Under the pieces are notes generated by a model. The model was given only the letters and a program-made list of their open reading frames with translations. It was not told the DNA's origin and did no database searches. Shown in pieces: positions 16,819 through 28,471 of a stretch of DNA of 29,583 nt. Source of the stretch: a virus (taxonomy: Duplodnaviria; Caudoviricetes). The DNA lies in IMG/VR virus record IMGVR_UViG_3300017716_002909, positions 1 to 29,583 of that record; one strand, 5' to 3'. The translations under genes and the position numbers were made by a program. Position 1 is the stretch's first letter, and each line of letters begins with the position of its first letter.

Positions 16819-17712
16819 ATGACAAAAACAACAACAGCGGTTCAGACCGCACAGCCACAAAGCGCAAAGCTTTTTTTTCAAGCACCTGCTGTCAAAGCAA
16901 AGTTTGAGGAACTATTAGGAAAGCGTTCATCCGCTTTTATTACTTCGGTCTTGCAAATAGTAAGTCAGAATACCATGCTGGCAAACGCAGACCCTGCATC
17001 AATTTTCAACGCTGCTGCAACTGCTGCAACGCTTGACTTGCCACTTAATAACAACTTAGGCTTTGCTTACATTGTTCCTTATAATGCAAGACAGCAGGAC
17101 GGAAGCTTCAAGCAGCTTGCACAGTTTCAGCTAGGTTATAAGGGCTTTATTCAACTAGCTCAAAGGTCAGGTCAATTCACTAAGCTTTCAGCAGCACCAA
17201 TTTTTGAAGGGCAAATACTGACTGCAAACCCATTGACAGGTTTTGAGTTTGACTTTACTATTCCAGCAAGCGGTCAACCAATAGGCTACGCTGCCTATTT
17301 TAAGCTGACTAATGGCTTTGATTCAACTTTGTATATGTCTGCTTCAGAAATAAAAAGTCATGGCTTAAAATACAGCAAAACATTTGCAAAAGGAGTTTGG
17401 CAAACTGACTTTGACGGAATGGCAAAAAAGACCGTTCTGAAATTATTGCTTTCAAGATATGCACCGCTTTCAATTGAGATGCAAACAGCAATTGTTACAG
17501 ACCAAGCAGTTATAAACGATGCAGAGGCAAGCTCGGTAACTTATATTGATAATGAACCTGAAGCAGAAGTTGACAAGCTTGCAGAGCGCTTACTTTTAAT
17601 GATAGAAGATGCAAGCTCGGTGGATGAGCTTATGAATTTGGAAGCTGAAGTCAAGGCTTTAAACAATGAAGAAGTAAGCGCTGCTTATTCACAGAAAGGA
17701 GCACAATTTTAA
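16819..17712 (+). CDS. recT: RecT/Bet-family single-strand annealing protein
   Basis: 'LGFAYIVPY', 'AQFQLGYKGFIQLAQRSG', 'W..DFDGMAKKTVLK.LL..YAPLSIE'. Confidence 0.92.
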   Translation: MTKTTTAVQTAQPQSAKLFFQAPAVKAKFEELLGKRSSAFITSVLQIVSQNTMLANADPASIFNAAATAATLDLPLNNNLGFAYIVPYNARQQDGSFKQLAQFQLGYKGFIQLAQRSGQFTKLSAAPIFEGQILTANPLTGFEFDFTIPASGQPIGYAAYFKLTNGFDSTLYMSASEIKSHGLKYSKTFAKGVWQTDFDGMAKKTVLKLLLSRYAPLSIEMQTAIVTDQAVINDAEASSVTYIDNEPEAEVDKLAERLLLMIEDASSVDELMNLEAEVKALNNEEVSAAYSQKGAQF

Positions 17713-18500
17713 TGGAAGCTAAAGATATTTTATTCAGATGCTCGGGGCTTGGACTAATAATGTCCGAGCCTCAAAGCAAAGCGGACAAAGATGCTGGCAA
17801 TTTAGGTGAAACAGTTAAAACGCATTTAGTTGACATTTATGTTTCCAATATGTATAACCGCTTCACTGAAATTAATTCCAGCATATTAAGCAAAGGAAAT
17901 GAAGTTGAAGAAGATGCTATAACCACAGTCAGCAGGAAGCTTAAAAAAGTTTTCAAAAAGAACGAAAAGCACTTGTCGAATTCCTATATAAAAGGAACGC
18001 CCGATTTATTTGAAGGAGAATCAATTGAGAAAGCTGACGTGATCAGGGACACTAAAAGTTCATGGAACGCTTTCACTTTCTTCAGGGCAAAAAATAAAGC
18101 TTTGATAAAAAACTATTATTGGCAAGGTCAAGGATATATGGAATTGACAGGTGCTAAGACTTGCTTCTTTGATTATTGCCTTATTAATACTCCTTATCAT
18201 ATTGTTGAAGGTGAGTTAAGGCGAGAAAGCTACAACCATGCTGAAGGCAACACCCCTTCATGGGTAGAGCTTCAAATAATAGCTAACCACGTTTATGATT
18301 TAAAGACCTTTGATGAATACAGCCAGCGCAGAGGGATATTCGACATTGACGATAATTGCAGATATATAAGGGCAGGCTTCGTTGAAATTCCTTTAGCTGA
18401 TAGGCACTTTTCAATTGAGATAAAATATGATGCTGAAGCAATTGAGAAGCTTTATAAAAGAATTGAAAAGTGCAAAGAATATTTAGAAACTAATTTTTAA
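17712..18500 (+). CDS. YqaJ/lambda-exonuclease-like nuclease
   Basis: 'FRCS', 'KGNEVEEDA', 'GTPD', 'DTKSSW', 'YYWQGQGYMELTG' PD-(D/E)XK pattern; coupled to recT. Confidence 0.85.
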   Translation: MEAKDILFRCSGLGLIMSEPQSKADKDAGNLGETVKTHLVDIYVSNMYNRFTEINSSILSKGNEVEEDAITTVSRKLKKVFKKNEKHLSNSYIKGTPDLFEGESIEKADVIRDTKSSWNAFTFFRAKNKALIKNYYWQGQGYMELTGAKTCFFDYCLINTPYHIVEGELRRESYNHAEGNTPSWVELQIIANHVYDLKTFDEYSQRRGIFDIDDNCRYIRAGFVEIPLADRHFSIEIKYDAEAIEKLYKRIEKCKEYLETNF

Positions 18501-18511
18501 AATCAACCACC

Positions 18512-18808
18512 ATGACAAAAACAAATTTAATCAAAGAACTAGCACTTGAACATTCCATGACTAAAGACCAAGTTGAATTAATAGTGGAAAGCCTGCTAAG
18601 AAAAATAACCAAAGCAGCAGTGAAGAAACAGGACACGCACATTCGTGGCTTTGGCTCATTCCTTTCAATAAAAAAGAAAGCTAAAATCGGGCAGGACATA
18701 AGAAGAAAAGAGCCGATTCAAATTCCAGCTCACTATTCCATTAAGTTCAAAGTTTCAAAGTCATTAATTCACAGAATAAATAAACCATGCGATGAAACTA
18801 ATTATTAA
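18512..18808 (+). CDS. HU/IHF-family DNA-binding protein
   Basis: 'MTKTNLI...IRGFGSF...IQIPA...KFKVSKSL'. Confidence 0.88.
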   Translation: MTKTNLIKELALEHSMTKDQVELIVESLLRKITKAAVKKQDTHIRGFGSFLSIKKKAKIGQDIRRKEPIQIPAHYSIKFKVSKSLIHRINKPCDETNY

Positions 18809-19489: not shown

Positions 19490-20377
19490 ATGGAAAACTT
19501 TAATTTAGCAACATTCGAACTATTAGAAGCCACAGGTCTTAATTGGACAGTGAAAAAAGAGCCTTTATTTGCAGCAGACAACAAAGCCACAGAGAGCTTT
19601 GGAATGTTCCGCAACGACACAGGTAAATGGTTAGGCACAGTAGGAAACCGCTACGCTCCAATGCAGAACTACGAGCTGGCTGAAACCATTGTTCAGGCAA
19701 CCGATCAATTGGAACTTAAAACTCAAAGAGGCGGTCAGCTTGCAGGTGGAAGCAAGGTTTATCTTCAGGCTGAACTTCCTGATTCATTCATTGGAAACAG
19801 CAACGTGAAACGCTGGATAACAGGTTTGAATTCTCATGACGGCAGTTCTTCGATAGGCTTTGGAAGCAGCAGCACAGTAATAATATGTCAAAACACTTTT
19901 TACAAGGCTTATAAAGACCTTTCTAAATTCAGACATACCCAAAGTGCACAGGAAAGAATAAAGGCAGCAGTAGCCGATTTACGCAAGGCATTACAGCTGG
20001 ACAACGACTTAATGGATAACTTTAAGCGCATGGCTGATATTCAATTGAAAGATGAAATGATTGAGGCAGTTATTAGAAAGATATTCAAAGTTGACCCCAA
20101 TGCCAGCAGCGAAAAAGTTTCGACACGCAAATTCAATATTGTCAACCAATTTGCAGGAAGCTTGCAGACTGAAATTGGCTTAGAAGGAAACACTTTATGG
20201 GGTTTATTCAATGGAATTACAAGATTCACAAACCACGTTGCAGCGCCACAGGAAGCTGAAAAGAAAGCCGACTTTTTAATGACAGGATCGGGCTTTGCAA
20301 TGGCGAGCGCAGGCTATGACGAAATCATGAAGTGGGTTGAAGCAAATGAAGTTCAATATCAATTTATAGGCAAATAA
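19490..20377 (+). CDS. DUF932-family phage/plasmid protein
   Basis: 'GLNWTV.K.PL', 'LGTVG.RY.P.QN', 'NSHDGSSS', 'VIICQNT', 'TLWGLFNGIT.F..H'. Confidence 0.85.
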   Translation: MENFNLATFELLEATGLNWTVKKEPLFAADNKATESFGMFRNDTGKWLGTVGNRYAPMQNYELAETIVQATDQLELKTQRGGQLAGGSKVYLQAELPDSFIGNSNVKRWITGLNSHDGSSSIGFGSSSTVIICQNTFYKAYKDLSKFRHTQSAQERIKAAVADLRKALQLDNDLMDNFKRMADIQLKDEMIEAVIRKIFKVDPNASSEKVSTRKFNIVNQFAGSLQTEIGLEGNTLWGLFNGITRFTNHVAAPQEAEKKADFLMTGSGFAMASAGYDEIMKWVEANEVQYQFIGK

Positions 20378-22951: not shown

Positions 22952-23866
22952 ATGAGCAAAATTAAATTTAGAGAAATCAGGCTTTCCAAATCCAACAAAG
23001 AAAGACTTGAAACCATTAATGAGATTATTAATGAATATCAGGAAGACGGCTACAAATTAACTTTAAGGCAGCTGTATTATCAATTGGTTAGTAGGGATAT
23101 TATACCTAACAAGCTGGCTGAATATTCAAAGCTTTCAACTTTATTAAAAGAGGGCAGAATGGGTGGCATAGTTGATTGGGATGCAATTGAAGACAGGTTA
23201 AGAAAACCGAGCAAGCCTTCAAGTTGGGACAGCCCTTCAGATGCGATTGATTCATTGATAAGCCAATATAAGCTCCCGAGAATGAAAGGGCAGCACACTT
23301 ACATTGAAGTGTGGGTTGAAAAGGATGCTTTGTCAGGAGTTTTAAAAAGAGTGACAGAAAAGTTCCACATTCCAATTGTGGTGAATAGAGGCTACAGTTC
23401 TGCTTCAGCAATGTTTGAAGCTTATAATAGATTTAAATATGGCATCAGCGATATTTTAAAAGAAGAAGACCAAGACGGAGCAGCAGTTGTTATTTTTTAT
23501 TTAGGGGACTTCGACCCTTCAGGAATGGACATGATAAGGGACGTGAAGGATAGAATTTTGGAATTTGCGCAGAAAGATTACGACTTCTTTCCTTTGGAAG
23601 TTATACCAATTGCTTTGACTAAAGAACAAATTGAGCAATATAACCCACCACCCAATCCAGCAAAAACAACCGACCCAAGAGCGAAAGGCTTTATTGAAGA
23701 ACATGGCGCTACGAGTTGGGAAGTGGATGCACTTCCACCAAAGGTTCTTAACAATTTATTGGACAGGGCTATTATGCAATATATAGACTATAAAAAATAT
23801 TTTGAAATAGTGCAGCAGGAAATAAAAGACAAAGAAAAATTAACTCTTTTAAAACAGTCAATGTAA
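22952..23866 (+). CDS. Topo VI-A/JetD-like winged-helix plus TOPRIM protein
   Basis: 'LTLRQLYYQLV', 'EVWVEKDAL', 'NRGYSS', 'LGDFDPSG', 'WEVDAL'. Confidence 0.75.
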   Translation: MSKIKFREIRLSKSNKERLETINEIINEYQEDGYKLTLRQLYYQLVSRDIIPNKLAEYSKLSTLLKEGRMGGIVDWDAIEDRLRKPSKPSSWDSPSDAIDSLISQYKLPRMKGQHTYIEVWVEKDALSGVLKRVTEKFHIPIVVNRGYSSASAMFEAYNRFKYGISDILKEEDQDGAAVVIFYLGDFDPSGMDMIRDVKDRILEFAQKDYDFFPLEVIPIALTKEQIEQYNPPPNPAKTTDPRAKGFIEEHGATSWEVDALPPKVLNNLLDRAIMQYIDYKKYFEIVQQEIKDKEKLTLLKQSM

Positions 23867-25731: not shown

Positions 25732-26016
25732 ATGAATGAAATAAAGTTTGAGATTTTTAAAGCTTTCGCACTTAGGTTGTGGATGCTTTCAGGCAGAAGT
25801 TTTACTGCTGCTGCTTTCTTATTTGCCCACAGCCTTCACCCTCATTGGGTTTTTATTGTTTCCTTTTGTATAAGCTTTCCTTTAGTGCTAATCGCATTTT
25901 ATAGGCTTATCGAAACAGTGCGTTTGTATTTCAAAATACTTCCTGATATCGACAAGCTGAAGCAGGAAGAAGTGAAAGCTGAGAATAAAAAATACCTTAA
26001 AAAATTAACAAAATGA
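25732..26016 (+). CDS. Small membrane protein
   Basis: 94 aa, two hydrophobic segments. Confidence 0.6.
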   Translation: MNEIKFEIFKAFALRLWMLSGRSFTAAAFLFAHSLHPHWVFIVSFCISFPLVLIAFYRLIETVRLYFKILPDIDKLKQEEVKAENKKYLKKLTK

Positions 26017-26609
26017 TTGAGCAGGTAGCAATTAATTTGTTGAAGCTGAATGATAATAACCCACGCTTCATAAAGGACGAGAAGTTTCAAAAGCTTGTCA
26101 AGTCTATTAAAGAATTTCCAGCAATGCTTCAACTGCGACCAATTGTCGTGAATGAAGATATGGTTGTGCTTGGTGGCAACATGCGGTTAAGGGCATGCAA
26201 AGAAGCAGGTTTGAAAGAAGTGCCAATCATTAAAGCCAGCAACTTAACTGAAGCGCAGCAGAACGAGTTTATCATAAAAGACAACGTGGGCTTTGGAGAA
26301 TGGGCTTGGGATGAACTAGCGAATGGTTGGGACACAGAACTGCTAACAGTTTGGGGCTTGGATATAGTGGGCTTTGACGTGAATGCAGACAAGTTTGGAG
26401 AAGGCTTCAGTTTAGCAGACGGTCAGAAACCACCCTTTCAACAAATGACATTCACGCTTGCAGACGAGCAAGCCACAATAATTAAAAATGCAATGGAAGA
26501 CATCAAGCAGACTGACGAATATAAGTTTGGTGAATTCTTTGAAAACGAAAACAGCAACGGTAACGCACTTGCATTAATTGTGCAGCAATGGGCAGAGCTA
26601 AAGAAATAG
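26013..26609 (+). CDS. ParB/Srx-like domain protein
   Basis: 'NNPRFI...KLVKSIKEFP.ML.LRPIVV....VLGGNMRLRAC', 'FIIKDN..FGEW'. Confidence 0.85.
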   Translation: MIEQVAINLLKLNDNNPRFIKDEKFQKLVKSIKEFPAMLQLRPIVVNEDMVVLGGNMRLRACKEAGLKEVPIIKASNLTEAQQNEFIIKDNVGFGEWAWDELANGWDTELLTVWGLDIVGFDVNADKFGEGFSLADGQKPPFQQMTFTLADEQATIIKNAMEDIKQTDEYKFGEFFENENSNGNALALIVQQWAELKK

Positions 26610-27277
26610 TTGTCAAAGTAATTAACTCTAAGCTGGCAAATGATTTTGTCAGACAAAACCACTATTCAAAGAAGGTTGTTCCAAACTCAACGCTTCACTT
26701 TGGTTGCTTTTTAGACAACCGCCTTCATGGTGTTATGAGCTTTGGTTCTCCAATGATAAAAGAGAAAGCGCTTCCTTTAGTTGAAGGCACAGGCTGGAAC
26801 GAGATGTTAGAACTCAATCGCATGGCTTTTGATTCCTACCTGCCAAAGAACAGCGAATCAAGGTGTATATCAATTGCCTTCAGGCTAATAAAGAAAAACG
26901 CACCGCAGGTGAAGTGGGTGCTTTCTTATTCTGACGGCACTCAATCAGGGGACGGCACTATCTATAGAGCATCGGGCTTTTATTTGACAGCCATAAAGCA
27001 GAACAAAGGAATTATCATGTTGCCCAATGGTGAAATAAGAGCGCACATGACATTCACGAAGGGCAAAGCCATACTTTCAAACAACGGCAAGGCTTCGCAC
27101 CCTGAAGGCTCAAAGTATCTTGAAGGATTCCAGCTGAGATATATTTATTTAATTGATAAGTCTTGCAAGCTGACAGTTCCTGTTCTTTCCTTTGATGAAA
27201 TAGACAAAGCAGGTGCTGGAATGCTTAGAGGCAAACGACAAACTTTAGAAAGCAGAAAGGTCAAAAAAAATGAGTAG
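26588..27277 (+). CDS. mom: Mom-like (GNAT-fold) DNA adenine modification enzyme, copy 1
   Basis: 'NHYS', 'ELNRMAF', 'SESRCI', 'LSYSDGTQSGDGTIYRASGF' match the Mom-family pattern as I recall it. Confidence 0.75.
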   Translation: MGRAKEIVVKVINSKLANDFVRQNHYSKKVVPNSTLHFGCFLDNRLHGVMSFGSPMIKEKALPLVEGTGWNEMLELNRMAFDSYLPKNSESRCISIAFRLIKKNAPQVKWVLSYSDGTQSGDGTIYRASGFYLTAIKQNKGIIMLPNGEIRAHMTFTKGKAILSNNGKASHPEGSKYLEGFQLRYIYLIDKSCKLTVPVLSFDEIDKAGAGMLRGKRQTLESRKVKKNE

Positions 27278-27932
27278 AGTTAAGGAAATTATCGTTAAGG
27301 TCATTGATGCAAAGACTGCAAATGAATTTTGCAAGATATATCACTATTCAGGAAGCTTCGTGATGAATTCTGTTTTGCATTTTGGATGCTTCCTAGACGG
27401 TAAGCTGCATGGAATTTTACAATATGGCAACAGCATTGATAAAAGAAATTGCATCGTCTTTGTGGACACAGGCATGACTATCAATGAAGGTTGGAACAGC
27501 TTTTTAGAATTGAACAGAATGGCTTTTGATGACTATCTTCCTAAATATAGCGAGAGCCGTTGCATAGCAATTACTATCAAGCTTATCAGGAAACATGCAC
27601 CGCAAATAAAATGGATATTAAGCTATGCAGACGGAACGCAGTGCGGTGACGGAACAATTTACCGAGCTTCAGGCTTCCAGCTTTGTGGGATCAACAAAAA
27701 CTCAACTATCTACGAACTGCCAAATGGAAAGTCTAAAGCGAAGCATGGAACAAGCAAGGTGGACTTCACAGGAGCGAAGCGCAAAGAAGGAAACCAATTC
27801 AGGTATATTTATCTGGTTGACAAGGCTTGTAAAATAACTTTGGACATAATTCCCTTCAGCAAGATAGATGAGCTAAATGCAGGCATGTATAAAGGGCAAA
27901 GAATAAAAGTATCGGAAAGAAGCAAGCAGTGA
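27270..27932 (+). CDS. mom: Mom-like DNA adenine modification enzyme, copy 2
   Basis: Full-length paralogue of copy 1: 'YHYS', 'ELNRMAFDDYLPKYSESRCI', 'SYADGTQCGDGTIYRASGF'. Confidence 0.75.
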   Translation: MSRVKEIIVKVIDAKTANEFCKIYHYSGSFVMNSVLHFGCFLDGKLHGILQYGNSIDKRNCIVFVDTGMTINEGWNSFLELNRMAFDDYLPKYSESRCIAITIKLIRKHAPQIKWILSYADGTQCGDGTIYRASGFQLCGINKNSTIYELPNGKSKAKHGTSKVDFTGAKRKEGNQFRYIYLVDKACKITLDIIPFSKIDELNAGMYKGQRIKVSERSKQ

Positions 27933-27937
27933 AAAAA

Positions 27938-28011
27938 TGGAGCAGTGGGATAGTTTCGAACTTCGTCTCTTGGCTGGAATGCCAAGCGCTTTCAGGTTAA
28001 GCTACCACCGC
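27938..28011 (-). tRNA. Atypical tRNA-Gly-like RNA (UCC within an 8-nt anticodon loop), encoded CCA
   Basis: GCGGTGG TA GCTT AACCTGA AAGC G CTTGG CATTCCAG CCAAG AGAC GAAG TTCGAAA CTATC CCACTGC T CCA: cloverleaf with 7-bp acceptor stem, TTCGA loop and U73. Confidence 0.8.
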
Positions 28012-28066: not shown

Positions 28067-28471
28067 ATGCAAGCCAAAAGTAAAAAAGCTATTCAACTGA
28101 CTGATAAAAAAGCTGTTAGCCCTGATAAGATTCAGACAAATACAGACATCAGAAAAGAACAAATGATTGCAGCATTGGAACAATCGCTTGGAATAGTAAC
28201 CACAGCTTGCAAAGCAGTTGGAGTGGCAAGGGCAACGCACTATGAATGGTTAGACAGCGACCCCGAATATAAAAAGCGAGCTGAAGCTTTGGGTGATATA
28301 GCGCTGGACTTTGCAGAGAGTAAGCTGTTGAGCCAAATAACAAAAGGGGACACGACAGCGATTATTTTCTACTTGAAAACCAAAGGAAAGAAGCGTGGCT
28401 ATATAGAAAGAAGCGACATCAATATTCAAATTGAGCAGCCAATATTTACAGGCATAGATTTGAAAGATTAA
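28067..28471 (+). CDS. terS: Terminase small subunit
   Basis: 'ALEQSLGIVTTACK.VGV.R.T.Y.W', 'LDFAESKL', 'AIIFYLKTKGKKRGY.E'. Confidence 0.8.
   Translation: MQAKSKKAIQLTDKKAVSPDKIQTNTDIRKEQMIAALEQSLGIVTTACKAVGVARATHYEWLDSDPEYKKRAEALGDIALDFAESKLLSQITKGDTTAIIFYLKTKGKKRGYIERSDINIQIEQPIFTGIDLKD

Follow-up and report, generated by a model that had tools for sequence, protein, structure and literature searches.

A tRNA-Gly-like RNA gene stands beside two mom-like genes in a 29,583-nt stretch of tailed-virus DNA (Duplodnaviria; Caudoviricetes; IMG/VR record IMGVR_UViG_3300017716_002909, positions 1 to 29,583), which is called the window below. Relatives of this RNA occur in viral loci almost only together with Mom, a DNA-modifying enzyme, and in all unique copies counted the T-stem lacks one pair at a position that matters for elongation factor Tu (EF-Tu). 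We propose, with a probability of about 0.65, that the RNA is a dedicated glycyl donor, which would be transcribed, charged by glycyl-tRNA synthetase (GlyRS), avoided by EF-Tu and used by Mom to produce N6-carbamoylmethyl-deoxyadenosine (6-NcmdA).

The RNA gene in the window

The search with Rfam gave a single match within the window at E<=1, to the tRNA family RF00005 (37.1 bits; gathering score 29), covering 28011-27941 of the minus strand. ARAGORN called no tRNA anywhere in the window. The first-pass annotation of this DNA, made from the sequence alone, had described one tRNA-like element placed 5 nt past the stop codon of Mom2; this proved correct, and the strand could be assigned as minus. 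Together with its CCA, the gene spans 28011-27938 and stops 5 nt from the Mom2 stop. As it is convergent with mom, the RNA lies outside the mom transcript.

The acceptor end of the window RNA carries G1-C72, C2-G71, U73 and an encoded CCA, and C35/C36 are found in the anticodon loop. A canonical elongator tRNA has a five-pair T-stem, a seven-base anticodon loop and G18-G19 in the D loop. None of these three features is present in the window RNA. Its T-stem is made up of four pairs, A63 being bulged and position 51 missing; the anticodon loop is 8 nt long (C-A-U-UCC-A-G), with a C32-G38 pair, and the D loop (AACCUGA) is without GG.

Single-sequence folding of the window RNA was modest (z -1.9), with the T arm outside the minimum free energy (MFE) structure; the full cloverleaf has -20.3 kcal/mol, compared with -22.5 kcal/mol for the MFE. 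It is the covariation across relatives that argues against a chance resemblance. In an alignment of 40 copies (the window and 39 loci), 99.3% of the cells of the cloverleaf were paired, and compensatory changes were seen in 18 of 21 pairs. The observed covariation was reached by 0 of 500 shuffles, a test that relatedness can inflate, and slid controls gave 36-55%. The same is seen at short distance: pair 30-40 is G-C in the window, U-A in runs X4 and X5, and A-U in run X8, which has 57 differences in 550 nt, two of them within the RNA among the differences listed. To judge from these changes, the structure of the RNA is under selection.

Conservation of the RNA family

The determinants of bacterial tRNA-Gly are U73, G1-C72, C2-G71, G3-C70, C35 and C36 (PMC9976931). 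Features were counted over 64 unique RNA copies out of 106 hits. U73, G1-C72, C2-G71 and CC at positions 35-36 were each found in 64/64 copies, and G3-C70 in 62/64, with G·U in only one. The bulged A63 was also universal (64/64, in every case with all four pairs formed when the stem is modelled with the bulge); a five-pair T-stem was found in 0/64, and a Watson-Crick pair 32-38 in 64/64. The D loop contains GG in 40/64 relatives, and in some relatives the D arm is not recognisable. The commonest form of the anticodon loop has one extra base (42/86 copies). Loss of U33 was considered as a further universal lesion and turned out to be only partly true. Two Firmicutes-associated copies (L301:1369-1442 and L310:1725-1797) have a shrunken or degenerate anticodon loop together with an intact acceptor stem, the A63 bulge and CCA.

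The nearest genomic homologues of Mom2 are mostly in Flavobacteriales and Saprospiraceae assemblies, and for this reason the host of the window phage is probably a member of Bacteroidota. A canonical tRNA-Gly(UCC) is present in 59/61 Bacteroidota host genomes; therefore, the RNA fills no decoding gap.

The encoded CCA, which the first-pass annotation counted among the glycine features, holds for the window copy and is not a trait of its clade, in which it was found in 1/64 copies. In 60/64 the 3′ end is CAA or CUA. CCA is mostly encoded in Firmicutes- and Psychrobacter-associated copies. In two sets of Bacteroidota host tRNA genes, CCA is encoded in 5/42 and 3/29 genes, and in 0/35 of the Gly-UCC genes. 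All 71 parsed Bacteroidota tRNA genes (G001, G003; L327-L366) have C74, and only 8 have CCA. The idea that a 3′ end without CCA keeps the RNA off the ribosome was rejected, since Bacteroidota tRNA genes rarely encode CCA and the phage copies follow this host convention. A76 is encoded in 79/86 unique phage copies (L162-L281) versus 8/35 host tRNA-Gly(UCC) genes, and C75 almost never; the excess of A76 may stem in part from A-rich flanks and from overlap with stop codons.

Co-occurrence of the RNA with Mom

The first-pass annotation had suggested building a covariance model of the RNA and examining its co-occurrence with mom, and the expected linkage was observed. All 80 viral loci selected by Mom2 contained the RNA; 39 of them had built the model, and many others were near copies. 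A second set of 80 loci was selected by ParB, blind to both Mom and RNA. Here the RNA was detected in 25/25 loci with Mom and in 0/55 without it. At least 1.4 kb of downstream sequence was available in 51 of these 55 loci, and less in the other 4. The model scores ordinary tRNA-Gly at 37-56 bits, so the 55 Mom-less loci are also without ordinary tRNA-Gly. The RNA occurs only with Mom, not with the DNA-modification slot in which Mom stands (see below), and the same RNA is present beside distant Mom subfamilies.

The linkage was also seen when the search started from the RNA. With the first search pattern, Mom adjoined 79/80 flanked loci, the one exception being a locus truncated close to the match, and was found in 38/40 short loci. 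With the second pattern, of the CCA type, Mom was found at 73/80 loci (RNA 3′ of Mom in 45, and 5′ of it or within its reading frame in 28); in six of the seven misses the locus was truncated, and 38/40 short loci had Mom. The two patterns suggest about 310 and 790 stretches in IMG/VR. In the control set of ordinary viral tRNA-Gly(UCC) genes, Mom was found within 1.3 kb in 0/80, five T-stem pairs in 78/80, and A63 in none. As a separate observation, at L411:732-2629 the RNA stands between a 400-aa open reading frame (ORF), which by eye we take to be glycosyltransferase-like, and a gene resembling terS, and Mom is absent from the surrounding 1.3 kb.

Among close homologues in bacterial genomes, the RNA was present in 18/31. 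One of the 18, L300, has the RNA upstream of ParB and without A63. Among 14 named phages, one had the RNA within 1.5 kb of mom, namely the cultured Psychrobacter phage vB_PmaS_Y8A (OQ059336), in which the order parB-mom-terS-terL is the same as in the window. Its mom gene, ORF17, is annotated as hypothetical. Between ORF17 and terS we found two tandem unannotated tRNA-Gly-like genes (L313:2162-2229 and 2234-2302); both have a CCC-containing loop, the A63 bulge and CCA, and the D arm is not recognisable in either. The Y8A paper reports a second Mom at ORF69 and no tRNA genes. The earlier expectation that standard tRNA scans miss such RNAs thus held for ARAGORN in the window and for the Y8A paper, and among 60 loci tRNA scanners called the RNA in 15.

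The two Mom enzymes

Both Mom proteins of the window belong to family PF25680 and score far above its cut-off (27.1 bits); they also matched the structure of Mu Mom (8bv8) with E values of 2e-19 (Mom1) and 5e-22 (Mom2). Mu Mom moves glycine from Gly-tRNA(Gly) onto N6 of deoxyadenosine (PMC13219725), which confirms the donor named in the first-pass annotation. All three E. coli tRNA-Gly isoacceptors serve Mu Mom, and Ala-tRNA(Ala) is rejected (PMC13219725). For the active site of Mu Mom seven residues have been proposed, and both window proteins keep six of them (H58, Y59, R111, S124, D149 and Y159; Mu numbering is the 8bv8 chain index + 9). W48, a dimer contact in Mu Mom, is not kept in Mom1 or Mom2 and aligns to K. 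Mom1 is predicted to be a tRNA-dependent DNA adenine aminoacyl transferase. Trinucleotide bias at the SAS target of Mu showed no consistent trend.

Mom1 and Mom2 have 51% identity. Because they are placed in separate subclades of the tree, the pair is not the product of a recent duplication. Two Mom genes with one RNA were also seen at L029, L049, L051, L190, L204, L220, L222, L291 and L419, sometimes from distant subfamilies.

Gene order and the ParB-terS slot

The virus record of 29.6 kb contains genes for tail, head, lysis, recombination and terminase. The presence of a ParB-like gene and two Mom-like genes, noted in the first-pass annotation, was confirmed by domain searches. The features of the locus are as follows:

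26013-26609, plus strand: ParB-like gene, ParB-N domain with a C-terminal extension (PF02195, E 8e-9)
26588-27277, plus strand: Mom1, 229 aa, GNAT-fold Mom family (PF25680, E 2e-49, 168.7 bits)
27270-27932, plus strand: Mom2, 220 aa (PF25680, E 1e-43, 149.4 bits)
28011-27938, minus strand: tRNA-Gly(UCC)-like RNA gene, 74 nt (Rfam; model R1, 77.7 bits; covariation)
27932-27937, minus strand: U6 run abutting the CCA, possible transcript end (from the sequence)
28075-28082, minus strand: match to TAnnTTTG, 64 nt upstream of the RNA gene, candidate Bacteroidota-type -7 element, at chance level
28067-28471, plus strand: terminase small subunit gene (terS), right edge of a swappable DNA-modification slot (PHROGs; gene order in relatives)

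The ParB-like gene and mom1 overlap by 22 nt. In relatives, ParB is followed by, or forms one protein with, N6/N4 and C5 methyltransferases, TAGT/TET, ADDT, ABC-GNAT and other enzymes. For the 55 Mom-less ParB-selected loci, the content of the slot was examined by a scan of 38 proteins, which came from 35 loci. Among these 35 loci, the enzyme was an N6/N4 methyltransferase in 19, an ABC-type ATPase in 5 (with a GNAT match in 3), a C5 methyltransferase in 3, TAGT in 2, and PAPS reductase and ADDT in one each; in 4 loci the slot proteins had no match. This range of enzymes between ParB and terS leads us to regard the interval as a swappable DNA-modification slot. Judging by gene order, ParB goes with any DNA-modification enzyme that occupies the slot and is not specific to Mom. 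Individual Mom-less slots (L103-L161) include TAGT with TET/JBP at L133, GATase with ADDT at L148, PAPS reductase at L135, ABC-ATPase-GNAT at L121, L125 and L153, and ORFs without a Pfam match at L115, L146, L152 and L159.

Elsewhere in the window there are a RecT and exonuclease pair (16819-18500), an HU-like DNA-binding protein (18512-18808), a DUF932 protein (19490-20377) and, at 22952-23866, a 304-aa ORF similar to phrog_6247 (labelled DNA topoisomerase, E 8e-88) with no Pfam match.

Orientation of the RNA and its possible promoters

Behind Mom2 homologues, the RNA is antisense in 54 loci and sense in 26. On a quick tree of 124 rows (103 distinct; rows with E worse than 1e-60 or fewer than 180 profile positions were excluded), 19 changes of orientation state were counted over three labels, and the starred branches force at least 8-9 per orientation. 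In this tree L300 is labelled 'none', though its RNA copy sits upstream of ParB, and inversion and gene swapping are indistinguishable as causes of the switches. As the placement of the RNA is free (sense, antisense or 5′-embedded) and its orientation has switched repeatedly, action of the RNA product in trans seems favoured.

Many antisense copies have a terminator-like hairpin and a U run within the last codons of mom (e.g., L003, L004, L024 and L061). The motif TAnnTTTG, a Bacteroidetes promoter (PMC10309648), was found in exact form upstream of 17/42 antisense versus 5/28 sense copies (p 0.066), which is suggestive of an own promoter for the antisense copies. In the window, TAnnTTTG was not found within 25 nt of the RNA, and the window as a whole contains 54 matches versus 44 expected. 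A terminator scan called none at the U6 run.

Proposed function and alternative explanations

According to the proposed mechanism, the RNA gene, lying on the strand opposite to mom, would be transcribed in infection, and host GlyRS would likely charge the RNA with glycine. The affinity of EF-Tu is set by pairs 49-65, 50-64 and 51-63 (PMC3239215). EF-Tu is predicted to bind the RNA poorly, since the missing 51-63 is one of these three pairs. The glycyl-RNA reserved in this way could then donate glycine to Mom1 and Mom2, and Mom would likely turn adenines of the phage DNA into 6-NcmdA, blocking restriction enzymes. The RNA probably boosts or protects the supply of donor late in infection, rather than being indispensable. 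On balance, though with less assurance than for the window RNA, we lean towards a joint reading for the whole family: Mom-associated tRNA-Gly-like RNAs would be widespread, phage-encoded aminoacyl donors, excluded from translation and marked by the deleted position 51 and the bulged A63. As part of it, such RNAs would be placed in sense, in antisense, embedded, doubled or in D-armless form, and ParB-Mom-RNA would be a cassette of proteins and RNA against restriction, in which the Moms depend on the RNA encoded with them or at least favour it. Given G3·U70 and two divergent Moms, the window phage might even make a base derived from alanine as well.

Several results weigh against the proposed function. 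Mu Mom functions with host tRNA-Gly, including every E. coli isoacceptor (PMC13219725). R151, which is essential in Mu Mom (PMC13219725), is not kept in either window protein and aligns to T in D-G-T-Q; it is also missing from the other close homologues aligned. The third pair of the window RNA is G3·U70 and not the glycine determinant G3-C70, so that the glycine identity read from this RNA in the first-pass annotation stands for G1-C72, C2-G71, U73 and C35/C36 and fails at this pair. U33 is kept in 53/86 copies. No convincing promoter was found for the window RNA copy. In 13/31 close bacterial-genome homologues, no RNA was detected in the fetched flanks even with filters off; 5 of these 13 loci were short or had a partial mom. 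With a one-subtype model, no RNA was found within 1.5 kb of mom in D108 and 12 other named phages. In a close relative (runs X4 and X5, from two studies), a deletion of 1133 bp (26802-27934 in window coordinates) has taken away mom2 entirely and the greater part of mom1; the RNA gene of this relative is intact and shows a compensatory substitution in its anticodon stem. The co-occurrence counts, such as 25/25 and 0/55, come from related loci, with some contigs common to several sets, and are non-independent events. Finally, a measurement of EF-Tu binding for a deleted position 51 was not found in the accessible parts of the EF-Tu literature consulted. The private carrier envisaged in the first-pass annotation is thus partly supported by the Mom-specific linkage and the conserved lesion at the EF-Tu contact, but not in the sense of a required one, as isoacceptors suffice in Mu (PMC13219725) and 13/31 homologues are without the RNA.

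The alternative that survives best, which we consider unlikely, is a role as decoy or brake, in which the RNA, imitating tRNA-Gly, would bind Mom or, in antisense copies, pair with the mom message and so limit untimely modification. Such a role would fit the Mom-specific linkage and the conserved acceptor stem equally well, as it is presumably the acceptor end that Mom recognises; antisense copies often overlap the last codons of mom, and D-armless variants may charge poorly. A decoy does not account for C35/C36, which are read by GlyRS and kept in 64/64 copies, nor for a 3′ end that follows the apparent host convention, as expected of a matured and charged RNA. Moreover, the occurrence of sense, antisense and embedded placements excludes one common cis or antisense mechanism.

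Slightly less probable than the decoy is a translational tRNA-Gly that would refill a pool drained by Mom or resist a host defence that cuts tRNA. The use of Gly-tRNA by Mom would itself explain the linkage, the UCC anticodon and the glycine determinants are kept, and U33 is present in the copies counted above. Against decoding stand the absence of the 51-63 pair in 64/64 copies, the extra loop base in 42/86, the missing D arm in some relatives, and the finding that ordinary viral tRNA-Gly stands beside Mom in 0/80 cases.

It is improbable that the window RNA has drifted through G3·U70 to alanine or mixed Gly/Ala identity and that one Mom transfers alanine. G3·U70 is the major alanine determinant (PMC9976931) and is unchanged among the differences listed in X2, X4, X5 and X8. 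R151 is replaced, and the two Moms come from separate subclades. However, U73 and C2-G71 are not alanine determinants, G·U occurs in only 1/64 copies, the two-Mom loci L029, L049 and L051 have G3-C70, and Mu Mom rejects Ala-tRNA(Ala) (PMC13219725).

A relic without a role, either the remnant of an integration site or a hitchhiking pseudo-tRNA, has very little probability and is already largely refuted by covariation and Mom co-occurrence: the RNA does persist in the relative without mom and its lone folding is modest, but it is full-length and covarying, it tracks Mom and not the slot, it is more conserved than its flanks (in X8, 2 differences are listed for the RNA, compared with 57 over 550 nt), and a scan of 43 window proteins revealed no integrase.

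If the RNA is indeed a glycyl donor for Mom, a virus-encoded tRNA would act as a co-substrate of DNA modification and not as a decoder, and it would be a phage counterpart of the staphylococcal cell-wall tRNA-Gly. This would assign a role to the 'pseudo-tRNA' described in 2011, explain how Mom phages might avoid competition with the ribosome for Gly-tRNA, and point to a natural EF-Tu anti-determinant.

Comparison with known systems

The literature searched, mostly outside subscription journals, contained no proposal of a Mom-dedicated RNA. No phage-encoded Mom donor was found in the accessible part of PMC13219725 (2026), which gives host tRNA as the donor.

The closest enzyme of known activity is Mu Mom (PF25680, PDB 8BV8; PMC13219725). 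The window Moms belong to the same family and share six of its seven proposed active-site residues, and they are expected to catalyse a GNAT-type transfer onto adenine, with Gly-tRNA(Gly) as the donor. Unlike Mu, which uses host tRNA-Gly, the window has two Moms behind a ParB-like gene and an RNA gene of its own, and R151 and W48 are not kept.

An ordinary phage tRNA-Gly(UCC) resembles the window RNA in its cloverleaf, its anticodon and its match to the Rfam tRNA family. It differs in its five-pair T-stem (78/80), in the absence of A63, and in that Mom does not occur within 1.3 kb of it (0/80).

A similar arrangement was described in 2011 for the ssrA islands of Dehalococcoides, where a 76-bp tRNA-Gly-like 'pseudo-tRNA' lies inside a mom homologue behind parB; no function was proposed for it in the accessible part of that report (PMC3146451). 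Common to both is the order of ParB and then Mom with a tRNA-Gly-like element. The Dehalococcoides element is within the first 150 bp of mom, whereas the window RNA is free-standing, 3′ of mom and on the opposite strand. As viral 5′-embedded copies have the same T-arm pattern, the window RNA and the Dehalococcoides pseudo-tRNA (16 copies) probably belong to the same RNA superfamily.

The nearest functional parallel is the non-proteinogenic tRNA-Gly(UCC) of Staphylococcus (NP1, NP2 and NEW), which differs at 49-65 and 51-63 (PMC12256121). It shares with the window RNA the UCC anticodon, glycine determinants and a T-stem altered at the EF-Tu contact, and its partners, the Fem transferases, are GNAT-fold enzymes that use Gly-tRNA (PMC12256121, PMC3239215). 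The staphylococcal genes are chromosomal, their binding to EF-Tu is weakened by base-pair substitutions, and they feed cell-wall synthesis; the window RNA is phage-borne, is without position 51 and would feed DNA modification. Relative to these systems, the window adds a free-standing RNA in antisense orientation, co-occurrence counted in loci chosen blind, a T-stem lesion common to all unique copies, and a phage in culture that could serve for tests.

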